Positions 7,569 to 39,525 of a stretch of 64,000 nucleotides of DNA are shown here, one piece after another. This DNA comes from Eledone cirrhosa. Taxonomy: Eukaryota. Position 1 is the stretch's first letter, and each line of letters begins with the position of its first letter. The notes below the pieces were generated by a model. That model made no database searches. It was not told the DNA's origin and saw only the letters and a program-made list of their open reading frames with translations. The position numbers were made by a program, and so were the translations under genes. Where the stretch lies: contig OZ024742.1 in NCBI GenBank assembly GCA_964016885.1, positions 246,512,001 through 246,576,000 on the forward strand. Direction: 5' to 3'.

Positions 7569-7599
7569 AAATAATATTAATAATAATAATAATAATAAC

Positions 7600-9875
7600 G
7601 GCATTACATTCCTGCTACCGAAGAATGATGAGACAAACAATCCCAAAAATTACAGACCTGATAACCTGCTTGACCACAATGTATAAAATTTTAACATCAG
7701 TCCTAACTGAATACACATATGACCACCTGATAACAAATGACCTATTTCCCATTGAGCAGAAAGGGTGTAAACGAGGCTCATATGGCTGTAAGGATCAGCT
7801 TCTGGTTAACAAAATGATACTGGAAGATTGTCATAATAGACACAAAAATCTATCGATTGCTTGGATAGATTATAAAAAAGCTTTCGATAGTTTGCCACAC
7901 AGTTGGATTGAAAAATGTCTAGAGATTTTCAAAATATCCCCCGTTGTCAGGAGGTTTTTGTCATCCAGTATGAAGACATGGAGAACGACACTCCTTTTGA
8001 ATAGTGAAACAAAATCACTGGAAGCTGGAGAAGTTAATATTAATTGTGGAATTTTTCAGGGTGACTCTTTATCACCGCTTTTATTCTACCATTAAGTAAA
8101 ATGCTCAATGAAACAAAACATGGATATAGAGTCTATGACAAAACCATTAATCACCTGTTCTACATGGATGACCTGAAACTATTTGCAAAAAATGATGAAC
8201 AATTGCAAGGGCTATTGTCCACTGTGAAACAGTTCAGTGATGACATTAAAATGGAGTTTGGACTGGATAAATGCGCCAAAGCAACGTTCACCAGAGGAAA
8301 GCTGCTGAAGAGTTCAGACATTAATCTTGATCGGGGGATCGTGATAAGAGAGCTTGATCAAGAAAAAACTTACAAATATCTAGGTGTTTGTGAAGGAGAC
8401 GGAATCAAGCACTCGACAATGAGGGAAAGGATAAGGAAGGAATGTTACCGCAGAGTCAGAGCAATCTTAAGAACGGAATTGAATGCAAGGAATAGGATCG
8501 ATGCCATAAACACGCTTGCCATACCAGTAGTAACCTACAGTTACAATGTCATCAACTGGTCAAGCACAGAGATCCGTAGGCTCGATACAAAAATCCGAAA
8601 ATTCTTAACCATGCACAGAATGCATCACCCTAAGGCAGACATAGATAGAATATATCTCCCTAGGAAAGAAGGAGGACGTGGGTTAATCCAGTTAGACATT
8701 GCGTTGAAAACTGCAACAATTGGATTGTCCACATATCTAAGGGAATCACATGATTGGATGATCAAACTCGTTTTGAAACATGAAAGCACCAAAAGATCAT
8801 ATTCCATTACAAAAGATGCACAAAGATACAGTAATGGACTACAAATTTCAGAAGTCCCATTTACTGCTGAAATGGAAAACACAGAAAAAGCAAAGCAGGT
8901 AAAAGTAACTGCAAAGAAAGAACTGCTACAGAAACTGGCTAAGAAATGGCAAGAAAAGCCTCTGTATGGAAAATACCCAGAGCGAGCTAACAATCCTGAT
9001 GTTGACAAAACTTTAACCCATCAGTGGTTGGCATCCTCTGGACTGAAATCGGAGACTGAAGGACTGATTATATCGGCACAAGATCAGTGTCTGCCAACAA
9101 AAAATTACCAAGCCAACATAATAAAAAATGGGTGCAGCCCATTATGCCGTGTATGCAACAAACAACCAGAGACCATTGACCATATAATTTCAATGTGCAG
9201 TCCTATAGCTCCAACCGAATACCTAAACAGGCATGACAGAGCTGCACAATACATACATTGGATAATGTGTAAGTATTTTGACCTGCCCCATCAAAAGAAT
9301 TGGTGGGAGCATCAACCACCTCCCATACTTGAAAAAGATCACATCTCAATCTTGTGGAACTTTAGCATCCAAACAGACCGAAAAATAGATGCAAATAGAC
9401 CTGATATAATATTGAAGGACTTTCAAAGGAGTTTATGCCTGCTAATTGATATGTCTGTTCCAATAGACAAGAATGTATCTATAAAAACATTTGAAAAATT
9501 GAGCAAGTATAAGGACCTGGAGATAGAAATTGGAAAAATGTGGAAATTGAGAACTAAAACAATACCAGTGGTTGTAGGCGCTCTGGGAATGATACCTAAG
9601 GGGTCTAATGATTACTTATCGCAAATCCCAGGAAACCCGCGTATAGGAGAAATACAAAAGATAGTACTAATGGGAACTGCCCATATACTAAGGAAGATCC
9701 TGTCAATATAAGTACATCACAAGCCTAGACACTAAGGATGCATGTGTGAATATGTATGTTCTTTCTTGAACATGGCGGACCTTGTTGTCTCTTGAGGTCA
9801 CTGGTTGTGACTTGGTGATAACTCGTATGAACATAAAGCAAGATAAATGCAAATAATAATAATAATAATAATAAT
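7600..9875 (+). mobile_element. 5'-truncated R4/Dong-clade non-LTR retrotransposon (RT plus restriction-like endonuclease), frameshifted
   Basis: RT motifs NYRP-ITCL, DYKKAFDS, QGDSLSP, YMDD; CxxC..H..C knuckle; RHD; RPDI..LID..KY. Frameshifts near 7660 and 8090; (TAA)n on both sides. Confidence 0.93.
8101..9711 (+). pseudogene. Dong/R4 ORF C-terminal 536 aa (RT YMDD, thumb, CCHC, RLE)
   Basis: Uninterrupted ORF; the upstream RT portion is out of frame. Confidence 0.9.
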
Positions 9876-9947: not shown

Positions 9948-11903
9948 ATGATGATAATGATTTCTTTATTAGCTACAGAGGGCTCACATTAAGGAAACAT
10001 TAAAACGATACAGGACGATACAATGTGGGTTTTTCTTTCTGTAAAATAAAATCTGTAAAAGAGGCTAAGAAAATAAACATTTAAAACAAACAATAATTTC
10101 CTGAAAGTTGAGGAGAATCTAAGGGTGACTCGTGTAGAAATCCCACAAAATCCACAGTCACCCTGTCCTCTAGGTTAATATGCCCTCTCCCAGGCTATCT
10201 ACTCCAATCTACAGGCGTATGCTCAATGCAGGCCCACTCAGTCAAACCATGCTTGCCACTCTCACCCACCTTTCAATAAACTGATTTGAAGGCAGCACTT
10301 CCCTCTCCACCCTCATTTTCATCTTCAAGTGAAATCTGAAAAAGTTAATCAAGGCTTCACCAAAGAGGAAGAAGGCTGTCTTCAACCCCTTCAAACGCGT
10401 CCACCACACGACGTCTTTCACCATGGTCACCAGGCAATACTCGGAGTCTCGACGAGTGAGTGCAGTACGGTTTCGTCTCCCTGCGCGCACCTCGGACAGG
10501 CCCGATTGACGGCACTTCCATGTCTAGCGTTTATCCCGAACTGGCAAAGCTCCTCGGTAGCACTGCAAGGTCAGGGATTTCTGGAAGTTGTCCATGAGCC
10601 TAGGCTCGAAAGCTCTCCCAAAGAGATTGGCTAGTTGATTTTCATCGTTGCCCAGAGTCTCCCCAAGGATCTCGTCGCCCTTTCCTTCCACTAACCTTCT
10701 ATAGAACGTCAAGTTGGAGTTTCCACTGTTCGCAGCCCCCGACTAGTCGAGGTCTGTGAGCGCCTGAAGACATTCCAATCTCCAAGCGCTCCCTCTCGGT
10801 CTTCGCTTGACCTAGGACTGCAGCTCCGTCAAGGAGGCGTGCTGGGGAAAAACGTGTCTAGCAAACACCGACCACACTTGTTCACTGTCAAGGAAGAGGT
10901 GGAGCTGCCGTAGCCTCAGCGCATTTCTGCGCATCATCAGCCACGGCATGCCCAACCCTCCACGTAGCGGGTGTAGACAGCAGATGGACTTCCTGACCAT
11001 TCGAGCACGTGCCTTCCACAAAAAGCGAAATGGCAGACGCTCCAGTGCAGTCAGGTTAGGCTTAGGCCAAGGCACGACGGTGAGGTGGTAGTAGATGACG
11101 GACCCGATGTTCGAGTTCGCCACCTCTGCTCGGCCTTTCAAGTATAGTTTCCTCTGGGCCCATTTCTAGGTGAGTGATGCCAACTTGAACGTTACCTCGT
11201 CGCAGTTTCTGTCCATCTGGAGGTCCGGTCCAAACCAGACTCCGAGTAATTTAACCGCTCAGTCTGTCCAGTGCTAGATGACACTGTTGGACGGCATGGA
11301 CCTGCCTCTCCAGATGCCCAGCTGCAGGTCCCCCGACTTTTCCTGGTTGATCATTGTTCCTGATACCGCTTCTTACACCCTGTGAGAGCTGCTTATCCTA
11401 TCAATGTGTTTGGTGCTTGACACCACTATGGTGACGTCGTAGGCATATGCCGACACGGATCTTCCACATGCTAGTTCGCGCAGGATGTCCCCCAATGTCT
11501 CTAATTTGTGTACAAATAGCTCAAGAGTCAATACATACAGAATGGAGGGGAGGGGAAATCTTAGCGAACCGAGCGCATGATGTTGAATGGTTCCGAAAGG
11601 TGACCACAGAGCAGATGTCGCTGTGCATTGCAGCGATCAAGCTCCTGAAAACGGGTCGAAAGCCTGCTGCTTTGAGGACGGCCGCAAGGTAGCGATGGTC
11701 AACCCTATCGAAGGCCTTTGATTGATCTAAAATTAATCAGAGCCCCACCCGTGCCAGGTTCCTTAACCACCCTCTCTATGATGTATCGCATGAGGTGGAG
11801 GTTGTCGTGGATGGACCTGTTCGGAATGGCGCAAGTTTGCGCCCATCCTACCAGATCACCGACGGCAAGCGCCAACCTCGTTGCTAATACTTTGGCCAAA
11901 ATT
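9948..11903 (-). mobile_element. Decayed 5'-truncated Tx1-clade LINE (RT to C-terminus, 3'UTR, short (ATC/ATT) tail)
   Basis: Fragments AKVLATRLALAV, QTCAIPNRSIHDNLH, KGRAEVAN, GGLGMPWL match ORF 23752-27198; many stops; ctaataaagaaa 3' end near 9960-9973. Confidence 0.92.
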
Positions 11904-12382: not shown

Positions 12383-13390
12383 AACAACAATAACAACTGC
12401 AACAACAATACTGACAGCAACAACATTAAGAACAACAACAAAAATATTAGCATTAGTAACACTAACACCACCTCCACCACCACCAACAACAACAATAGAA
12501 ACTGATAATAGCAACAGCAACAGAAATAATAACAACAGCAACAAGAATACATACAAGAATAACATCAACAACAACAATAGCAACAACAACAACAACAATA
12601 ATACAATCAGCAACAGCAACAACACAATCAACAACAACCGCAGCAGCACAAAACACCACCACCAACACAACCACCAACTCCACTTTCACCACCACCACCG
12701 CCACCACCACCACCACAACCAACACCACCACAATCACCACTACCACCATCACCACGACCACCACAACCACCACAAATACCACCGCCACCTCCACCACGAC
12801 GACGACCACCACGACCACCACCACGACCACCACCACGACCACCACAGCCACCACCACAAACACCACCACGACCACCACCAACAACAACAATAACACCACA
12901 ACCACCACAATCCACCACCACCACCACCCCAACCACTACCACCACGACCACGACCACTACCACGACCACTACCACCACCACCACCACCACCACCACCACC
13001 GCCACAACCACCACAACCACCACAACCAACACCACCACTACCACCGCAACTACCACCACCACCACCACCGACACAACCACAACCACCACAATCACCACAA
13101 CCAACACCACCGCTACCATCAACACCACCACCACCACGACCACCACAGCCACCACCACAAACCCCACCACCACCACCACCACCACCACAACCACAACCAC
13201 CACCACCACCACAAACACCACCACCATCACCACAACCACAACCACCACCACCACCACGACCACAACCACAACTACCACCACCACCACAAACACCACCACC
13301 ATCACCACAACCACAACTACCACCACCACCACAACCACAACCACCACGACCACCACAAACCCCACCACCACCACCACCACAACGACACTA
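12383..13390. repeat. Degenerate (AAC)n/(ACC)n trinucleotide tract
   Basis: Directly visible; source of the poly-V, poly-H and poly-T ORFs. Confidence 0.95.
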
Positions 13391-17242: not shown

Positions 17243-20200
17243 TAGCAGAAGTACCCGGCGTTGTCCGGGTGTAAGTCGACCTTTGCGCTGATGTTAAAAA
17301 TGTGTGAAAGTTACTTCCCGCGCATCACAGGTGCAAAAACCTTCGAACCTCAAGGAAAAAAAACAGAGGTTAGTAGACGCAGGTGTGTAATTGGGCATAC
17401 ATAATGGATCAATTGTAGGTTCACAGTGTATCGTTGAAATTGTTCTTTGCACGACTGACGGAAGTCAAATTCACTTGAAAAAGTCGATTTTTTCATAGTT
17501 TTTTTTTTCTTTTTACAATTTTCGCGCTCACATGTGCAGAAGAAGAAATAAAAGGGACTTTATCTGAACCGCGGCATAATGGCGAGTCTTTTGCGACAGT
17601 TTTCAAGAAAATCGGACGTTCCTGTAAAAAGTTTTCCCATGTGCAACTTTGCCTTGTTTTTGCGCAAAGTCGAACCCCGCTTCAGTTTTATTGATTTTTT
17701 ACATGAATGCGTGACCTCTGAAGTAGATTTGAGTAGCTAAAAACCTGTCCCGGTAAATTTGCTATAAGTGAAAAAAAGTTGATCAAAATTGTGTCTAGGG
17801 TTATTGCCCTTTGCAACAGCCTCAACGTGTCTTCAAGTATGGTTTGTTAATTTGTTATGGAACTAAATCAACTTTCGTCAAATCGGACCGAGGAAACAAT
17901 GTTTCCATTTGTTTTTCTAGCTGGTGTACCCGGTTACACTCGGGGTTATAAGGCGCTGGATTTAAACGGGTTTGCGCTAAATTCTAGCAGGATGCTTTAA
18001 CCGAAATAAATGAAGAACAAACGTTTCTATTTGTGCTCCAATCTGTGATATTGGTATTTTGAAAATATAGTCCACAAACATCCATGGAGCATGTGTAACG
18101 CATGTTTCAGGTTATGAGAAAAAGGGTTTTCGATTCTCCATTCATAAGATACCAAAAAAATTGCACGCAAATAAACCGGGATTTTAAGGCACTGCCCAAT
18201 TCATAGCTGAAAGGTAAGAATCAAGTGGAATAATGTTTTGCGATATTGTCAAATGTACAACCGTACAAAAGCAAAGGATATAGACATTGAAATCTAGGTA
18301 GACCAAAGAATTTGGTGGGGTTGTATATCAGAGGTTTGTTTTCCTTGTGATTCGCGTCTAGCCTTCAAAGTGAAGTTGATGAGTATAGTCGGTGTTGTAT
18401 CAATAAAAAATAAAAGCATACGGAAGACTGAACACTTACGAATTAAGTGAAAATCACGTTGATATTCCTATCGGAGCAACATATGCCGAAAAACCTGACG
18501 GACTGTTGTGTCAATATTGAAATCGTAGAAATTGCGAATCCCGACCTCTAAGATGTAATGGATAGGCCCTGGAGGTGAAGAGGAAGAATTGTACAATTGT
18601 TTTGCTGAATCATGTTGACCATTAATTTAAGACTTACGCATCATCATCGTGCGGTTTTGTTGTTTATGGCCTAGAATGAGGGCCGGATAAACGCGGCAGA
18701 AAAATAAGCCATGCTAATAATGTTTAGGGGCGTCGCAGGAATAGATGCGGCGTTGTGAGTCAATTGTGAGGACAGTGGAAGGCACGCTGATCGCTTGAGA
18801 AGACGGGATGCTACACAGGATGCTTCTCGGCCATAATTGACAGAAAGGCATGTCAGGAGAAATGAAAGAGTTGCTATTCATCCTTTGCTGAGCATGATGA
18901 AGATGTAATTAAAAATATTTACCATGGACTATCGTGCACGTTGGTATTGTGTTTAGCCTGCGAAAATCGGTGGTCAAATGAGGCAACAATAAGCCATGCT
19001 GATGACGTTTAAGGGTAGCAAGGAATTGATGCGGCATAGATAGCCATGGGAGTCTTGAAGGAGTACGGCGGTCAGGAAAAAGAAAGGGCCGAGGAGGGGA
19101 TGGTGGCTGACAGTGCATGGATGCAGCATCCTGAGGCATGACGATGCAGTGGGACGACGGCCAGCAGGCAAGGAAGAGGGCAGGGGTGGACGGTGGTAAG
19201 GATGCCGCATGGTGAGCCATGGCAGTCTTGAAGGAGCACTGCGGACAGGCAAAAGAAAGGGCCGAGGAGGGACTGGCGGCTGACAGAGCATTGATGCGGC
19301 ATGGTGATGCATGACGATGCAGTGGGACGACGGCGTGCAGGGAACGGAGAGGGCAGGGTTTGACGGTGGCAGGGATGCGACTTGGTCCCTCAAGACTGCC
19401 ATGCCTAGGCAGTGGAAAGGGTCGGGGAGTGGATGGCGGCTGACAGGGCAGGGATGCAATATGATGAGGCATGCCGAAAAGGCAGGCTGCATGGCGGCTG
19501 ACAGGGCGTGGATGCGGAATGCCAATTGAGTTGCACCTCGGGAATGTAGAGAGCACCGGGAGGCACGATGATTGTTTGAGAAAACCCGGTGCAAGGCAGG
19601 ATGTTTATCGGCCATACATGATCGGTAGGCTTTGGAGGAGAAAGGGATGAATTTTTGTTTAATTTTGTTAAATATGGTAAAAATGAATGTAAAAAGACTT
19701 ACACAGGATCGTCTTCATGTTCGGTGTTGTCTTTGGTCTGAGATAATGGGCGGTTATGTGCGGCGCAGGAATAAACCATGCTGATGACATTTGAGCAAGT
19801 TGCTGACAGGGCAAGAATGCCGCATGGTGAATCATGGCAGTCGCGAGGGACAAAGGCGTGCGGGAAAGGGAGAGGGCAGGGGTTGACGGTGGCAGGGATG
19901 CGGCTTGGTTAGGCATGGTAGTCTTGAAGGAGCACGGCGGGCAGGCAAAATAAAAGGCTGAGGAGGGGATGGCGGCTGACAGATCATGGATGCGGCATGG
20001 TGAGGCATAACGATGCAGTGGGTCGACGGCGTGCAGGGAAGGGAGATGGCCGGGATTGACGGTTGCAGGGATTCCGCATGGTGAGCTATGGCACTCGTAA
20101 AGGACCAAGGCGTGCGGGTAATGGAGAGGGCAGGGGAGGGCATGGCGGCTGACAGAGCATGGATGCGGTATTGTGCGGCATGACGATGCAGTAGGACGAC

Positions 20201-21127
20201 AGCGTGCAGGGAAGGGAGAGGGCAGGGGTTGACGATGGCAGGGATGCGGCTTGGTCAGGCATGGATGTCTTGTGCTCTCCCGGAGTGTAGGCGATGGAAA
20301 TGGGTAGGGGTAGACGGTGGCAGGGATTCGGCATGTTGAGCCGTAGCAGTCGTTAGGGACCACGGAGGGCAGGCAATGGAAAGGGCCGGGGAATGAATTG
20401 CGGCTGACAAGGCAGAGATGCGCATGGTGATGCACAACGATGCAGTGGGTCGACGGCGTGCAGGGAAGGGAGAGGGCAGGGGTTGACGGATGCCTCATTA
20501 TGCTACGGTAGTGGGACCACGGGAATGAAGAGAGCGCATGGAGGCTTGATGATCGCTTGAGAAGACTGGGCGCAATACAGGATGATGCGCGGCGGTATAG
20601 TCTTGATAGTCCTTATATAAGAAATGGAAGAATCGGCATAAAAGGTTTGCTGAATATGTTGAGCGTTAATTTAAAGAGACTTACGGTGGATAATCCTGAT
20701 AGATTGAACGTTTTTTGCATGGCGGGAGTCGCGACAAATGGAAGCAAGAAGAATGGCGTTTTTCGGTTGCCGGACTTTTGCTTCTGGGAGTCCGATTATC
20801 GATTTTTGAAAATTTCAAATACCCCACTTTGATCCCCGCATCAAATTTCATTGGAATCGGACAAATTTCGTAAATATCGATTTTTGCCTCTGGTGATCCA
20901 AATACACACTTGCATCGAGTTTCATCGAAATCTGATGATATTTGAAAATATCGATATTTGGCTACTGGGGGTCCGATTATCGATTTTTCGAAAATTTCAA
21001 GTAGCCTATTCCAAACTACGGGTCGAGTTTTATATATGTGTCAAGTTTAATGAAAATCGGATGAACGGTGTAGCCGCAAGTTCGGGACACCAAACAAACA
21101 ACGCCCAACTTCACTTTATATATAAGA
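17242..21127 (-). mobile_element. Non-autonomous Helitron (~3.9 kb) inserted at A|T in (TA)n
   Basis: 5' A|TCTTATATATAAAG at 21127; 3' cccgg-acaacg-ccggg hairpin, 8 nt, then CTAG|T at 17242; internal second 3' end at 17917. Confidence 0.8.
18700..20600. repeat. GC-rich degenerate minisatellite (~173-bp unit made of ~81+92-bp subunits) within a higher-order repeat
   Basis: gg(c/t)ggctgacag at 19102, 19275, 19435, 19971, 20144; aataa(g/a)ccatgct block at about 18703, 18988, 19770. Confidence 0.85.
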
Positions 21128-22292: not shown

Positions 22293-22457
22293 CATACATA
22301 CACACATACACATACATAACACACATACGTGCACATATATATGTAAATACACATACACATTTATCAGCACATCTATTGTAACATGCTGACTTATAAAGTC
22401 AAGTGCAATAGCTTTATATGATTATTTATTTCTCTCTCTATATATCTATCTATCTAT

Positions 22458-22833
22458 CTTTTTTCAAATACCACTTTGGAAGAAGAATCAGGATGGAGAG
22501 AGAGGTGCTGTACCCCAGCAAGTTTTATGAAAGGTGGGTGAAAGTGGCGAGAATGGCCCGAGTGAATGGGCCTTCTCTCTATATCAGCCTGTAGATTGAG
22601 GAAAAGGAGGAGGAGAGGAAAGGAGTACAAGCTCTTCGTACTCCTGGAGATGAGGGTTGCACATTTTTTTCGGGGGTATGTGTTACCCATATAAACTGTC
22701 TCCCTCTATTGGGGAAAATCGACTAACTTTTAAATTCCATCTGTGATAACATTTTACACGTTTTTATTGTATGTAAACTTCCCCCTTTGTATTTGTCCCC
22801 TTCTTTTGTGCCCCTGTGGCTAATAAAGAAATA

Positions 22834-22892
<59 letters not shown>
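22458..22892 (+). mobile_element. Tx1 3'-end fragment (subfamily B) with (TATC)n tail
   Basis: Almost identical to ~28294-28710; preceded by tatc repeats. Confidence 0.9.
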
Positions 22893-22893
<1 letters not shown>

Positions 22894-23710
22894 AACACCA
22901 AAACAACCACCACCACCACCACCACCACAAGTACAACGACAGACGAAACGAGCAACCACACCAAAACAAACAGACACTCAACCAACAACAACAGAAAAAA
23001 CAGAGACAACACCCCTGAAGAACACATCCCCACTCCATCCCACTCCATCAAACACTACCACAAACACACATACCGAAACACCACCACCACCACACAACAT
23101 ACCCTTACCCCACACACCTGACGATGATTATTCATCGACGGATGAAGCTGCTTCTCCTTCTTTAAGTGAAGAAGAGGGAGAACCGCGGAAATCCAAAAAA
23201 CAAAAAAAGAGACACCACAAAACCCCCAAAACTCCAATCACCAACACCAACACACAACCACAGACACAAACAACACAAACAACACCACAGTCAAACACCC
23301 CCCTATCAGCAAAACCAGCACCAACACCACCCCAAACACAAGCACCCACCATAAAAAGAAAACTCCCAGATGAACAACAAACTAAAACAATACAACAAAA
23401 ACACAAACAACAATACGCATACATCAACACAAACAACAAGAGTTTGATGGAGGTCATCTCCCAAAACCCCAAGGTGGAGACGGAGGGCAAAACTTTCGTC
23501 AAGGCAGAATCGTCTCCACACCTTAAACTTATAAGGGTTTCTATGGAAACCTATAAAGACCTGAAAATTAAATTTTCACAGGACGTGGGCAACCCCTGCC
23601 ACAAACCCATCAACCGCGTCCTGTTGAAAGGTTTCCCCACCCCACCCAACACCCCATCCAGCACCCAAATGGAGATTGAACAACCCGATCTCCAGGAAAC
23701 GAAAAGGTAA
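22893..23710 (+). CDS. 5'-truncated ORF1 C-terminus of Tx1 element (Pro/Thr/Gln-rich, acidic and basic patches)
   Basis: Open frame starting at the end of (TATC)n and stopping 41 nt before the ORF2 ATG. Confidence 0.7.
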
Positions 23711-23751
23711 GTGCACCTTTCGTCCTTTTTCTCCAACTTTTCTTCACCAAC

Positions 23752-26700
23752 ATGGCTGGTTTACGAGTTGGAACCGTGAATGTGCGTGGCCTAGGGATGC
23801 CCTGGAAACAGGGCCAACTTTTAAACGACCTTAGGTCACACAGTATGGATGTGATAGCCATCACCGAGTCCAGAATCCACAACAGGCAGCAACTAACCCC
23901 CATCTTCGACGACTTTGAGATCTACGCATCTCTCTGTCAGCCAGGAGGTGGAGGTGGAGTGGCTGTTATGTTTCGGAAGAACCTGGACGTCGGAGTACAG
24001 CAAGTACACTTGGACCCGGAGGGTAGACTGGTAGTCCTAGACGTGAACAGTATCGGAGGTGGAGCCTTCAGACTGGTGGCCGTTTATGCCCCGACCGGGC
24101 AATCGCAATCACGGCCAGACTTCTTTAAGCGTCTAGATTCTTTTCTGGGAACGTCTCGCTCCTTACTTTTAGTGGGGGACTGGAATGGTATCCTAGATGC
24201 ACGATGGGACTATGTGGGAGCATGTCCCAGTAGAGCGGGGTGCAACAGCCTCAAAACTTTAATCGACCAATTCCAACTGGCCGATAGGTATCGACTGGAT
24301 TTCCCGACTGCACCACAGTGGACGTGGGTAAACCGCAGTGGGACATCTAGATCGTATTTAGATAGGATCTTCATTAGAGAAAGGGACAAGGATATGTTAA
24401 GCTGTCCACGAATGCACATGGTTGCCTATTCAGATCACAAGTTAGTCGTCTGCTTAGTCAACCGTGATAGAATACATAGACAGGGTCCCGGATACTGGAA
24501 GCTGAACGTGTCGTTGCCGGCACGTAAAGCTTACAGTGAACGGATAAGTAAACTAGTCAAGCAACAGTTAACGGGAGCCATCGTCAACAATAGATGGTGG
24601 TACTCTCTCAAGAAAGCAATTAGAATAGAATCGATAGGGTATAGCAGAGAGTTAGCCTTAGAGAAAAACAGAATAGAAAGAGAACTAGTAGCCAAGGTAG
24701 AGGAGGCACTTAGAAGTGGCAACGCGGCTAGAGTGTTAGCGTCGAGAACGGCACTGGACCAGTTCTTCGATGCGAAACACGAAGGCTGCGTGGTCAGAAG
24801 CAAAACACGTGCTCTAGGAAACGAAGGAGCGAAAGCTGTCAGCTGGGCCCGAGTGACGGAGGCAAAAAGTGGCAACAAGTCCACGATTCGGTCTTTGAAA
24901 GACCAAAACGGACGCGTGATACTTGACCCCAAGCAAATGTGCGCGGCCTTTCAGCGGCACTTTGCGCGACTGTTTGAGCAGAACGACGGTGAGCCGAACG
25001 GGGCAATGGACTTTAGTTCATACCTTGACGGCCTGCCGCGTCTCTCGAACACGGACGCCGAGTTCTGCGAAAGACCGATCACGGACACTGAGATACGGGA
25101 CGCTCTGGGCCGCTGCGGGAAACGCAAGTCACCCGGTCTAGATGGTCTACCCTACGAATTTTACATAGGCATGCCGGACTTGTTCTCTGGCGTCCTCGAA
25201 GCCGTCTACTGCAATTGGCAGCAGAACGGGAGAATTCCCAGTTCTGCAGGCAAGGGCGTAGTAACGCTGATCAGGAAAGACGAGAACAAGGGGGACGAAA
25301 TTAACAACTTCAGGCCCATAACTCTGCTCAACACAGAGTTAAAGATTTTGGCCAAGGTGCTAGCGACGAGGTTGGCGCTTGTCGTCGAGAACCTGGTAGG
25401 GAAAGCGCAAACGTGTGCAATCCCGACCAGGTCCATACACGACTACCTCCACCTCATGCGATACATCATAGAGAGGGTGGGTAGTAAACCCGGCTTCGGT
25501 GGGGCTCTGATCAACTTGGATCAGTCTAAGGCATTCGATAGGGTCGACCATCGATACTTGGAAGCGGTTCTCAAGGCGGCCGGTTTCGGTCCCGTGTTCA
25601 GAGGATGGATCGAGGCGATGCACACCAGCATCTGCTCGAGGGTCAAGGTGAACGGCTACCTATCGGAGCCGTTCGTAATCACACGTTCCATTCGACAGGG
25701 ATGCCCTCTCTCCTCCATTCTGTATGTATTGACTCTAGAGCCACTACTGCGGAAATTGGAGCTGTTGCAGGGCATCCCCCTAGAACCGGGAATGCGCAAA
25801 GCGGCGTCGGCTTATGCCGACGACGTGACAGTAATGGTGTCGAGCACCTCGGAAATCGGGGTGATCGGCAACATACTGAAAGAATACGAAACGCTGACGG
25901 GAGCAAAACTAAACCCAGACAAGTCTGTCGGTTTGCAACTCGGTACGTGGAGAGGCAAACCGATGACATCCGACAGCGTCGTCGGACGCTGGACGGACGG
26001 ACCGGTGAAATTGCTCGGGGTCTGGTTCGGTCCAGACCTCCAGGTGGAGAAAAACTGGAACGAGGTCACGGCCAAGGTGTTTGCACTCACTCAGAAGTGG
26101 GCAGAGTGCAAACTGTCCTTGAAAGGTCGAGCGGAGGTGGCGAACACTTTCATAGCGTCCGTCATCTACTACCGCTTGACTGTCGTGCCTTGTCCCCGTG
26201 AACACCTCGCCAAGATGGAACGCATGCTCTTCCAGTTTCTGTGGAAGAAGCAGGCTCCGCTGGTGAGAAGATCCGTCTGCTGTCAGCACCCTTCCAACGG
26301 AGGGCTGGGAATGCCGTGGCTGATGATGCGCAAACATGCGCTGAGGCTGCGGCATCTCCAGGTATTCCTCACCGACCCCCAACCGGTGTGGGCACCGTTT
26401 GTGAGACAGGCTTTCCCACAGCTCGTCTCGCTAACGGAGCTGCAGTCCTGGGTGAAGAAAAGACCGAAAACGATGGGCGCCTGGCACATTGAATGCGCTC
26501 AGGCGCTCACAGTCCTCTGGCAAGCGGGCGCAGCAATCAGTGGAGACTCCACTTCGACATTCTATAGAGGGATTGTACGTTACAAGGGCGACGACGCGCT
26601 CGGAGAGACTCTGGGCGTCGAAGACGATGAGCTCACCAGTATGTTTGGTAGGACTTTCCGCCCGGGACCTATGGACAACTTCCAGAGGTCCCTGGCCTGG

Positions 26701-27198
26701 CAGTGCTACCGAGGAGCTCTACCGGTTCGTGACAAGATCTACAGGCACGGACGCCCTGGCAGGGATCCTTCCAAGAGGACGTGTCCAAGATGTGCGCAGG
26801 ACATTGAAACAGTTCTGCACGCAATTGTACACTGCCCGGGCGTAAGCGACCTGTGGAACTATGCAGAACAACTGCTGTCGCGTATGGGACAAATACAGTT
26901 GACTGCCGAGTCCATAGTAAGGATCAAACCGCCAGACTCTTTCAAAAACGAAAGAGAGGCGGTTTTCCTCTGTACGGTGGCTATGGTGAGAGAAGTTATA
27001 TGGTGGACGAGGTTGAGAGGACTGAGGACAGATGCCTTTCTCTCCGGACAACAATTGATTCCATTCTTTAAGTATCACTTTAGAAGGAGAATCAGGGTGG
27101 AGAGAGAGGCACTGCACCCCAGTAAATTTACTGAAAGGTGGGTGAATGAAGCGAAAATGGTCCGAGTGATTGGGCCTTCTCTGTTTATAAGCCTGTAG
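23752..27198 (+). CDS. Intact Tx1/L1-clade ORF2: APE endonuclease, RT and C-terminal zinc knuckle
   Basis: TVNVRG, VYAP, GDWN, LDRIF, SDH; GYWKLN; PGLDGL, FRPITLLN, DQSKAFD, RQGCPLS, YADD; GGLG; CPRC..ETVLHAIVHC. Confidence 0.96.
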   Translation: MAGLRVGTVNVRGLGMPWKQGQLLNDLRSHSMDVIAITESRIHNRQQLTPIFDDFEIYASLCQPGGGGGVAVMFRKNLDVGVQQVHLDPEGRLVVLDVNSIGGGAFRLVAVYAPTGQSQSRPDFFKRLDSFLGTSRSLLLVGDWNGILDARWDYVGACPSRAGCNSLKTLIDQFQLADRYRLDFPTAPQWTWVNRSGTSRSYLDRIFIRERDKDMLSCPRMHMVAYSDHKLVVCLVNRDRIHRQGPGYWKLNVSLPARKAYSERISKLVKQQLTGAIVNNRWWYSLKKAIRIESIGYSRELALEKNRIERELVAKVEEALRSGNAARVLASRTALDQFFDAKHEGCVVRSKTRALGNEGAKAVSWARVTEAKSGNKSTIRSLKDQNGRVILDPKQMCAAFQRHFARLFEQNDGEPNGAMDFSSYLDGLPRLSNTDAEFCERPITDTEIRDALGRCGKRKSPGLDGLPYEFYIGMPDLFSGVLEAVYCNWQQNGRIPSSAGKGVVTLIRKDENKGDEINNFRPITLLNTELKILAKVLATRLALVVENLVGKAQTCAIPTRSIHDYLHLMRYIIERVGSKPGFGGALINLDQSKAFDRVDHRYLEAVLKAAGFGPVFRGWIEAMHTSICSRVKVNGYLSEPFVITRSIRQGCPLSSILYVLTLEPLLRKLELLQGIPLEPGMRKAASAYADDVTVMVSSTSEIGVIGNILKEYETLTGAKLNPDKSVGLQLGTWRGKPMTSDSVVGRWTDGPVKLLGVWFGPDLQVEKNWNEVTAKVFALTQKWAECKLSLKGRAEVANTFIASVIYYRLTVVPCPREHLAKMERMLFQFLWKKQAPLVRRSVCCQHPSNGGLGMPWLMMRKHALRLRHLQVFLTDPQPVWAPFVRQAFPQLVSLTELQSWVKKRPKTMGAWHIECAQALTVLWQAGAAISGDSTSTFYRGIVRYKGDDALGETLGVEDDELTSMFGRTFRPGPMDNFQRSLAWQCYRGALPVRDKIYRHGRPGRDPSKRTCPRCAQDIETVLHAIVHCPGVSDLWNYAEQLLSRMGQIQLTAESIVRIKPPDSFKNEREAVFLCTVAMVREVIWWTRLRGLRTDAFLSGQQLIPFFKYHFRRRIRVEREALHPSKFTERWVNEAKMVRVIGPSLFISL

Positions 27199-27431
27199 GT
27201 TGAGGAAGAGAGCAAAAGGAAGAAAGGAGCACTTGCACAACACGCTCCTTGAGTTGAGGGTTGTTCTATCGACGGGGTATTAAACAACCCATTTGTGGCG
27301 CCTCCCCCCTATTGGGGATTTCGATTGTTGAAATTGTTTGTTTTTATATTTTTTACACGACTGTATGTAAAATCCCCGGCATGTCTTTGTATTGTCCCCT
27401 TTCTTGTTGCGCCCTTGTGGCTAATAAAGAA

Positions 27432-27493
<62 letters not shown>
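27199..27493 (+). other. Tx1 3'UTR, AATAAA and (TATC)n tail
   Basis: ctaataaagaaa followed directly by (tatc)n. Confidence 0.85.
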
Positions 27494-27494
<1 letters not shown>

Positions 27495-28669
27495 CTTTGG
27501 TAAGAAGATCCATCTGCTGCCAACACCCTTCTAACGGAGGGCTGGGGATGCCGTGGTTGACGATGCGCAAACACGCGCTCAGGCTGCGGCATCTCTACGT
27601 ATTCCTCACCGGACAACCGGTGTGGACCCCGTTCGTGAGGCGAGCCTTCCCACGACTCGTCTCACTGACCGAGCTGCAGTCCTGGGTCAAGCAGAGACCG
27701 AGGAAAATGGGCGACTGGCACATCGAATGTGCTCAGGCGCTCACAGCCCTCTGGCAGGCGGACCCGGCGATCAGTGGAGACTCCACTTCGTCATTCTATA
27801 GAGGGTTGGTCCGCAGCAAGTGCGACGACGCGCTCGGTGAAACTCTAGGCGTGGAGGAAGATGAACTGGCCAGTCTGTTCGGTAGGACCTTCCGCCCGGG
27901 ACCGATGGACAACTTCCAAAAGTCCCTGGCCTGGCAGTGCTACCGAGGAGCTCTACCAGTTCGAGACAAGCTCTACAGACATGGGCGCCCGGGCAGGGAC
28001 CCTGCAAAAAAGATCTGTCCGAGGTGCGTGCGAGACGAAGAAACCGTCGCGCACGCATTCATACACTGCCCGGGCGTCACTGACCTGTGGGGATATGTAG
28101 AACGACTATTGTCGCGGGTGGGACCAATCCAGTTGACCACCGAGTCCATTGTCATGATCAAACCGCCACCCTCCTTCAAAAACGAAGGAGAGGCGGTTTT
28201 CCTTTGTGTGATAGCTATGGCGAAAGAGGTATGGTGGACAAGGTAGAAAGGGCTGAGGTCAGACACCTTTCTCTCCGGCCAACAACTGATTCTTTTTTTC
28301 AAATACCACTTTGGAAGAAGAATCAGGATGGAGAGAGAGGTGCTGTACCCCAGCAAGTTTTATGAAAGGTGGGTGAAAGTGGCGAGAATGGCCCGAGTGA
28401 ATGGGCCTTCTCTCTATATCAGCCTGTAGATTGAGGAAAAGGAGGAGGAGAGGAATGGAGTACAAGCTCTTCGTACTCCTGGAGATGAGGGTTGCACATT
28501 TTTTTTCGGGGGTATGTGTTACCCATATAAACTGTCTCCCTCTATTGGGGAAAATCGACTAACTTTTAAATTCCATCTGTGATAACATTTTACACGTTTT
28601 TATTGTATGTAAACTTCCCCCTTTGTATTTGTCCCCTTCTTTTGTGCCCCTGTGGCTAATAAAGAAATA

Positions 28670-28710
<41 letters not shown>
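27494..28710 (+). mobile_element. 5'-truncated Tx1 copy (subfamily B) with in-frame stop at 28244
   Basis: Paralogous to the ORF2 C-terminus with many substitutions; a different 3'UTR; (TATC)n on both sides. Confidence 0.93.
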
Positions 28711-28720
<10 letters not shown>

Positions 28721-29585
28721 TTATCTATACAATGTGAGAGCCCCTCTGTATTTTCATACACAACCAGTCACCAAACCAGGACGAAAACCTGTGTATCAAG
28801 ACATTCGGATCATTTGAAGTGAACAACTTTAATCCTTTACCTAACCTGCAAGAATGTTTATAGTAAAAAGTACTCCAAATAGTGTAGCAAATGTAACAGC
28901 ATACAAGATTTGATTATGTTTACAGTATTAACTAGGGAACCAGTGTCGTCAATAATGATGGCAATAGTGTTGACTGTATTTATTTTTTAGAGTCCAAGAT
29001 TGGCATGCCATGCATGCCAGGGTTATCGGACATATGAACAATCATACAAGCTCGGATTTTTGCGTTTTGATAAATTAATTGTTTGCATAAGAGAAGTCCT
29101 ATAGTTTATGTTGATTACTGACACATGGGAGTGATTAAAGATACAAATGATATTTTAATTATTTATTTCTGGGATATATGATGTGTATCAAAAAAGAAAC
29201 AGGGTGTGGTCGCCAAAAAATATTTCAAATCCCTCTTTGAACCTTCTGTGTCACTCGAAAACTTGTTAGCGCGACATCGTCTCATCTCCGTACACTTGCT
29301 GCAGTATTCTGAGTGTTTCTGGCGGAGTTTTCTCCAACAGGACCAGAAACTTCAGGTTGGTTCATTGTTCTGTGCCCATTGCTCGACGGCCTTAAATTGG
29401 GGAGCTGTTAAGAAAAACACACGAAGAAGCATGCAATAGCTACAGGGAGCTCAGATCGCAGTTATATGCCCCTCGGGCATTCCGTCATACGGTGACGCAA
29501 CCCGCTAATTCCTAACCCATTCATAGCTGACACAGCACACTAAGTCCTGTTACTTTTCTGACACACCACCAATTGCATAAACGTT

Positions 29586-39090: not shown

Positions 39091-39092
<2 letters not shown>

Positions 39093-39525
39093 GGACAACA
39101 ACTCATTCCCTCCTTTAGATACCACTTTAGAAGGAGAATCAGAGTGGAGAGAGAGGTACTGCACTCCAGTAAATTTACTGAAAGATGGGTGAATGTGGCG
39201 AGAATGGCCCAAGAGATTGGGCTTTCTTTATATATTAACCTGTAGGTTGAAGAAGGGGGCGAAAAAAGAAAGGAGAACTTGTACAACAAGCTCCTGGAGT
39301 TGAGGGTTGTTCTATCTACGGGGTATAAAACAACCTATTTGTAACTCCTTCCCCCTATTGGGGATTGTTATATTTTTATGTTAACATTTTTTACACGACT
39401 TTTAAATGTTAACATTTTTTACACGATTTTAAAATCCCTGCCATATGTCTTTGTATTGTCCCCTTTTCTATCTATATATCTATCTATCTATATATCTATC
39501 TATCTATATATATATATCTATCTAA
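39091..39525 (+). mobile_element. Tx1 3' fragment ending in (TATC)n
   Basis: Homologous to 27045-27410 (ORF end plus 3'UTR). Confidence 0.85.

Follow-up and report, generated by a model that had tools for sequence, protein, structure and literature searches.

We analysed a 64,000-nucleotide (nt) stretch of the Eledone cirrhosa genome (contig OZ024742.1, positions 246,512,001 to 246,576,000; hereafter the window). Three copies, A, B and C, of an L1/Tx1-type long interspersed nuclear element (LINE) lie head-to-tail on its plus strand at 22460-28669. Junctions read genome-wide support the original prediction, made from the letters of the window, of a recently active family specific for (TATC)n; the family is young, and its insertions share one orientation and one register. 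The cluster is a stack of such LINEs, which insert at Y^TATCT (Y, pyrimidine; ^, nick), mostly inside (TATC)n, and we consider it fairly probable that the motif is set jointly by a loose nick and by pairing with about five flank letters carried on the element's RNA.

The prediction also described the three copies as 5′-truncated and embedded in (TATC)n. This was borne out: (TATC)4 precedes the cluster, (TATC)15 forms each of the two spacers, and (TATC)12 follows. The outer copies, said to be ~99% identical over ~370 bp, matched at 373/375 positions (A versus C). The middle copy does belong to another subfamily with an uninterrupted open reading frame 2 (ORF2); it was identical to copy C at 945/1194 positions (79%), and its 1148 codons are open. 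Within the cluster, the 5′ flank of copy A is the only one independent of a neighbouring copy's end.

GATA repeats as the insertion target

The 3.0-Gb genome was scanned with a 3′-terminal pattern of the family, which misses ends with G at its last place, and 6345 matches were found. Of the first 100 ends by position, 82, counted by hand, had one subfamily-specific base and then directly TATCT; a scripted count gave 23 of the first 30. A near-equal pattern requiring a non-T first flank base matched 330 times, and ~95% of ends start with T. We then read 5′ junctions. From 219 distinct loci, chosen by best identity or position and not at random, 168 yielded 5′ junctions with ≥90% identity, and one satellite duplicate was excluded. 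Among the 97 TATCT-ending copies, 17 full-length copies (whose own 5′ end is TATC-like) and 9 copies with the junction inside another copy's body were set aside. TATCTATC was present within 30 nt of the 5′ junction in 54 of the 71 remaining truncated copies, and never on the reverse strand. In copies without a neighbouring copy end within 150 nt, the count was 36/50. The background, from 200 kb of arbitrary genome, was 0.23% of segments. The TATC association is thus far above chance genome-wide, and 5′ flanks lacking TATC, which the original prediction had named as evidence that would speak against it, are the minority. A Tx1 family is regarded as target-specific when >20% of flanks share one sequence type (PMC4494074, in the text consulted); here the fractions were 54/71 at 5′ junctions and 82/100 at 3′ ends. 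A TC run, as expected of a Kibi- or Koshi-type target, was entered by 2 of the first 100 ends (ACTCT, TCTCT).

TATCT-type insertions were also found at short or imperfect sites, and at imperfect sites 15 duplications could be read. They were 10-28 bp long and all 15 began with TATCT. The preceding base was C in 14/15, including five copies whose own last base is A, and TATC preceded these informative duplications in 11/15. Across the family, target duplications measured ~9-28 bp and began with the motif. No poly(A) was found at the junctions; a single junction of 197 had six As nearby, and those lay in the flank. The absence of poly(A) and the duplications beginning at Y^TATCT identify the repeat as the target and not a tail.

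It is extremely unlikely that the element instead writes a (TATC)n tail and inserts broadly, its clusters persisting by chance or duplication. The 3′ arrays are often long, and tandem or segmental duplication accounts for some clusters (L007-L010, L110-L113), as this reading would allow. However, independent 5′ flanks carried TATCTATC in the 36/50 copies above, always on one strand; in imperfect-site copies L015, L152, L158 and L160 the flank's own letters directly follow TATCT and are repeated at the 5′ end; and copies that end in AATA, described below, have no TATC at either end. The 5′-junction analysis led us to reject TATC as the element's own tail as the main cause. As a separate observation, L007-L010 (contig C3, ~10.1 Mb) are four near-identical 3.5-kb subfamily-C units with the same junction, that is, a tandem duplication and not four insertions.

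ORF2 of copy B gave Pfam matches to an APE-type endonuclease, a reverse transcriptase (RT) and a C-terminal zinc-binding region, with the catalytic motifs present. A structure model built on a 75-sequence alignment had a predicted local distance difference test score of 90, and its best fold match was human L1 ORF2p, to which a profile search also pointed. Longer copies have a separate ORF1 of ~640 codons with one CCHC knuckle (Pfam E 0.24, below cut-off). With an APE, RT and zinc-binding ORF2, a separate ORF1, 5′ truncation and target-site duplications, the element belongs to the L1 group. Judged by this anatomy, the Tx1 label appears to fit, and the family works like the microsatellite-specific Tx1 elements. 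An L1/Tx1L loop chimera (2v0r) scored 31.3 versus 29.0 bits; this is a small edge and not evidence for Tx1. None of the 10 clusters looked up contained a named Tx1 ORF2, and the nearest named homologue was from Argonauta hians (66% over 495 aa), in keeping with an octopod host.

We considered copy B as a full-length element and rejected this. All 29 other copies matching its first 407 bases run further upstream, and full-length subfamily B copies are ~5.8 kb. Copy B is cut inside ORF1 and therefore cannot move by itself. It also has 11 amino-acid changes absent from seven other intact copies.

Sublineages that land at AATAT

An AATA terminus was found in 7 of the 29 subfamily B copies retrieved by similarity. 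Genome-wide, subfamily B ends comprised 122 AATA, 1338 TATC and 14 other AAT. The AATA-ending copies sit outside GATA repeats, without TATC at either end: TATCTATC was present at the 5′ junction of 0/53 AATA-ending versus 26/34 TATCT-ending B copies (p=1.8e-15). They had 23 readable duplications of 9-21 bp starting with AATA, and the base before them was C or T in 23/23, versus 41% in the background. A 5-nt match, and A, T and T at +2, +3 and +5, are common to the TATCT and AATAT classes.

Most AATA-ending copies fall into sublineages marked by single-nucleotide polymorphisms (SNPs) in the body, and the sublineages were picked by these SNPs alone, to avoid selecting on the end. The marker of sublineage alpha was found in 80 copies, versus 1369 with the ancestral base. 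Seventy of these were read in the SNP-based set; the other 10, fetched earlier, end in AATA. Among these 70, an AAT end was present in all 26 copies with both alpha SNPs (for one, which has an internal deletion, the end was read by eye) and in 39 of the 45 young copies overall. None of the 25 older alpha-marker copies ends in AAT, which fits recurrent mutation, and none of 30 ancestral-allele copies does. With a mean pairwise divergence of 0.5%, alpha is very young; it has at least four open ORF2s. The haplotype of sublineage beta was carried by eight copies, seven ending in AATAT and one in TATCT. Beta probably had a separate origin, because it has SNPs in common with TATCT copies rather than with alpha. 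On a tree of 64 rows, in which AAT rows were oversampled and most forks are open, the end label required 5 changes versus 18.5 when shuffled (0/500 shuffles). Ten copies end in AATC, possibly stepping stones between the motifs.

Several further copies of these classes were recorded. Alpha copies L391 and L392 have two additional SNPs in common, and each ends in AATGT, which may reflect further drift of the motif (n=2). We rejected L392 as the parent of L391 (sister pair 99/83): L392 is 5′-truncated, and L391 has a 5′ junction in common with L224 and L434. L391 would be a recombinant or duplicate, and the AATGT pair is kept as a hint only. L224, L391 and L434 (contig C2, ~401 Mb) have this one 5′ junction and differ in body haplotype and 3′ flank; either a duplication with later recombination or conversion, or a misassembly, would account for this. 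L091, L181, L182 and L183 (contig C1, 35-36 Mb), all of the AATAT class, have 5′ ends of at least three kinds and occupy the same position in one satellite unit, as longer pairing between RNA and flank would predict. In the full-length AATAT-class copies L183, L222 and L181, the conserved 5′ start is separated from the duplication by a short TATC-like or extra stretch, which may have been copied from the flank upstream of the source element. An older subfamily ending in AAGAAATT (L124, L127, L128) has several TATAT-type ends and is perhaps another switched lineage.

We compared the proteins of the two target classes. In the alpha endonuclease, no change relative to a TATCT copy was common to the seven copies that reach it, and L182, L184 and L187 were letter-identical to a GATA-targeting copy over aa 1-245. 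Residues 1-240 are the same in TATCT and AATAT copies, which argues against one endonuclease sequence meaning one cleavage motif. The only class-linked ORF2 change in alpha was D932Y, which lies outside the endonuclease, after the RT, in a loop between two helices of the structure model. Two independent alpha-marker AATAT copies (L116/L117, L237) and all beta copies lack it. In the endonuclease, P17S was carried by 24 copies, two of which are AATAT beta copies by coordinates. The ends of 20 of the 24 carriers were checked by coordinates: L385 was an exact fit to a TATC-type end, L346 and L366 were loose fits, and 15/24 carriers matched no listed AATA end. Because at least one carrier, and probably three, end in TATC-type flanks and 15 match no listed AATA end, P17S does not look sufficient for AATAT targeting.

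Copies ending in ATTATT form a separate group, whose ORF2 is 67% identical. The long copies L271 and L278 have (ATT)n on both sides. The group carries the same terminal motif, in (ATT)n or (ATC)n (L271, L276, L278), and ORF2 of L276 is open. Copy E of the window (11902-9959, minus strand) belongs with this group, whose ends run into ATT/ATC repeats. The ATT-group endonuclease is 61% identical and has a different hairpin, and therefore protein change accompanies target change over longer times.

Such change raises the alternative that ORF2p (or ORF1p) alone picks the site, D932Y in alpha and P17S in beta having retuned a GATA machine to AATAT with the RNA end as a passenger. In its favour, a single linked protein change is seen in each of the AATAT lineages, and the ATT-targeting family differs at residues 17 and 932 as well as in the hairpin, which reads NRIGSSRS there and NRSGTSRS in subfamilies B and C. 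In R1-clade elements, endonuclease swaps shift specificity (cited in PMC4494074). We nevertheless regard this alternative as unlikely. The alpha endonuclease is unchanged; across 75 homologues, column 932 varies greatly; beta keeps D932 and alpha keeps P17; and by coordinates only two of the 24 P17S copies are AATAT beta copies, while one exact and two loose fits have TATC-type ends.

The original prediction had suggested the APE domain as a candidate GATA-specific nickase. For the endonuclease alone this is doubtful, as alpha, with no common endonuclease change, lands at AATAT outside GATA repeats, and as short or imperfect sites, too, receive TATCT-type insertions. It could be retained if the AATAT copies moved otherwise, for instance in trans by a sister-family protein or at pre-existing nicks. 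The ends (~95% with T first, 82% TATCT) and the TATC before 11/15 duplications are what a GATA nickase would give, and subfamilies B and C, with 79% endonuclease identity, have the same target and hairpin. However, the AATAT copies have ordinary 9-21-bp duplications with the same pyrimidine before the nick, alpha is very young (0.5% divergence) with at least four open ORF2s, and the ATT family's own sites begin with ATTAT, not AATAT. Even with mobilisation in trans, the choice of motif would have to come from the RNA. A dedicated GATA nickase is therefore quite improbable.

Proposed role of RNA pairing in target choice

We favour joint choice of the site by a loose nick and RNA pairing. The element ends at AATAAAGAAATN without poly(A), its register and strand are fixed, and a pyrimidine precedes the nick whatever the element's last base. 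RNA cleavage usually occurs 10-30 nt after AATAAA. Because AATAAA is only 6 nt from the element end, the RNA would carry flank letters: transcription would read through the end into the flank, and the RNA would be cut a few to ~20 nt into it. The nicked strand (5′-AGATA-3′OH or 5′-ATATT-3′OH) would anneal to the flank copy on the RNA and prime reverse transcription there, bypassing poly(A). The endonuclease would impose a loose rule (Y, then A/T-A-T-C/A-T, AT-rich), within which the RNA would select. Each insertion would rebuild 'element + motif' through its duplication, so that daughters would seek the parent's motif and the target would be heritable. A lineage with another target would arise when, on rare occasions, a copy landed at a near-match (TATCT, AATCT, AATAT). 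Stacking would be expected because arrays offer many long matches and outlast each insertion.

Several observations weigh against this proposal. Read-through and RNA pairing are deduced from genomic DNA. TATAT was entered by 3 of the first 30 ends though TATAT is far commoner, and alpha and beta reached the same motif; a real protein preference is therefore indicated. D932Y was present in 26 of 32 AATA copies covering residue 932, and the independent D932Y-free AATAT copies with the alpha SNP number only two. Alpha also has a Q-to-R change in the T/P-rich ORF1 tail. P17S lies inside the endonuclease and was present in both beta copies that reach it, and the ATT-targeting sister family also has S at residue 17. 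TATC-type flanks were found in 6 of 45 young single-SNP alpha copies and in one of eight beta copies. Most forks of the tree are unresolved, and some copies are recombinant. A search of the 197 junctions for RNA-templated letters overwriting the target gave eight shifted matches, four of them repeat artefacts and four weak one- or two-base matches. In a separate comparison, contigs of four runs, set against window positions 26300-27434, showed relatives and no usable ends.

A broader reading, to which we give slightly less than an even chance, is that targeting is self-programmed and heritable. The 3′ flank would act as a short guide, so that one protein could serve GATA repeats or AATAT sites. 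Drift of the motif without protein change may have begun the octopod radiation of Tx1-type elements over microsatellites, and the target might be reset by editing ~5 RNA letters.

Window features and known systems

Coordinates of the cluster and of the related fragments are listed in the table. Of the fragment at 39091 (copy D), which the original prediction had as a fourth copy ending in TATC, the presence was confirmed and the TATC ending was not: its 3′ side is a mixed TATC/TATA run without a clean junction.

Positions of LINE copies and flanking repeats in the window
Feature	Position	Strand	Basis
5′ flank of the cluster: (TC)n, TATA, (TATC)4	22433..22459	+	sequence
Copy A, 374-bp 3′ fragment of subfamily C, terminus AATAAAGAAATA	22460..22833	+	373/375 vs copy C; 374/375 vs L291
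(TATC)15 target array, A/B spacer	22834..22893	+	sequence
Copy B, 4.5-kb 5′-truncated member of subfamily B, terminus AATAAAGAAATC, without poly(A)	22894..27434	+	sequence and genome copies
ORF1 C-terminal remnant, T/P-rich; start and CCHC knuckle of longer copies missing	22895..23710	+	comparison with longer copies
ORF2, 1148 aa, open: APE-type endonuclease aa 8-229, RT aa 514-757, zinc-binding region aa 980-1035	23752..27198	+	Pfam, model
AATAAA, 6 nt before the element end	27423..27428	+	sequence
(TATC)15 target array, B/C spacer	27435..27494	+	sequence
Copy C, 1175-bp 3′ fragment of subfamily C, terminus AATAAAGAAATA, one in-frame stop in the ORF2 remnant	27495..28669	+	sequence comparison
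3′ flank: (TATC)12 plus imperfect units	28670..28728	+	sequence
Copy D, older fragment, 80% like B, (TC)n on the 5′ side, terminal GCTAATAAAGAAAT motif absent	39091..39466	+	sequence comparison
Copy E, decayed sister-group fragment, ends AAGAAATC then ATTATCATCATT	9959..11902	-	sequence comparison

Elsewhere in the window, a broken LINE at 7599-9851 (plus strand) has an RT and a restriction-like RPD..D motif, with (TAA)n runs on both sides; we take it to be R4/Dong-like. Dong is known between (TAA)n runs (PMC3812793). Tandem repeats with a GC-rich 173-bp unit lie at 19028-19378 and 19848-20264, and no Pfam match was obtained for the reading frames that cover them. An (AAC)n-rich stretch is followed by ~730 bp of imperfect (CAC)n at 12654-13380.

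The mechanism of target choice in site-specific LINEs has been called not well understood (PMC3812793). The open question in the field is how target choice is split between endonuclease and RNA pairing, and how targets change in evolution. The value of the present family lies in natural, near-identical lineages with open frames that differ in target and not in endonuclease, which makes the question testable. If true, RNA pairing would explain head-to-tail LINE stacks in GATA arrays and would suggest a simple way to steer insertion tools of the APE type. We found neither a GATA-targeting LINE nor a natural target switch with unchanged endonuclease in the literature searched; Repbase or the figure and supplements of PMC4494074 may list a GATA-targeting Tx1. 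'GATA' is absent from the main text of PMC4494074 and PMC4640811 and occurs in PMC3812793 only in a mutation-rate table. The GATA target is thus unreported in that literature, yet it is an expected and modest addition to the list of known targets.

Microsatellite-specific Tx1 families include Kibi on (TC)n, Koshi on (TTC)n and crocodilian families on (TTCC)n/(TTTC)n (PMC4494074, PMC3812793). Like the present family, they are APE-type LINEs on a short microsatellite, with related families on different repeats. Setting kinship aside and comparing by target, the target here is (TATC)n, with sister families on (ATT)n; target-switched sublineages with unchanged endonuclease are not described in the available parts of those papers. 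In Octopus vulgaris, 13 recently active L1-Tx1 families with 421 insertions were reported (PMC13282606). These young Tx1-type LINEs may include the present family; the parts of that report available give no target preference. PMC9115989, as far as its text was available, concerns RTE and Dong.

Pairing between RNA and target is established for L1, R1Bm, R2Ol and SART1 (PMC3649969, PMC6530143, PMC7265360, PMC6007223, PMC1950540) and has been proposed for RTE (PMC6007223, PMC13295347). In R1Bm and R2Ol read-through, and in AGG pairing of SART1Bm, RNA flank letters anneal to the nicked strand and aid priming (PMC6530143, PMC7265360, PMC6007223). In those elements the one site is fixed by the endonuclease, and pairing makes insertion more efficient or accurate, whereas here pairing appears to choose among sites and to be inherited. 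In RTE-clade LINEs and their short counterparts (SINEs), the 3′ repeat and the duplication's first base vary together, and near-identical elements with differing 3′ letters and insertion signatures use one enzyme (PMC6007223, PMC13295347). The RTE repeat is the element's own tail with a 1-2 base match; here a 5-base match to the host flank is found in an L1-group element. The closest likeness in structure is to human L1, whose ORF2p is the best fold match. Its 'snap-velcro' priming combines a loose APE nick before a purine, ~4-5 matched primer-end bases and 10-20 bp duplications (PMC3649969, PMC1950540). Human L1, however, pairs through a fixed poly(A) that is left in the copy, whereas the present element has no poly(A) and its pairing letters would follow the parent's site.

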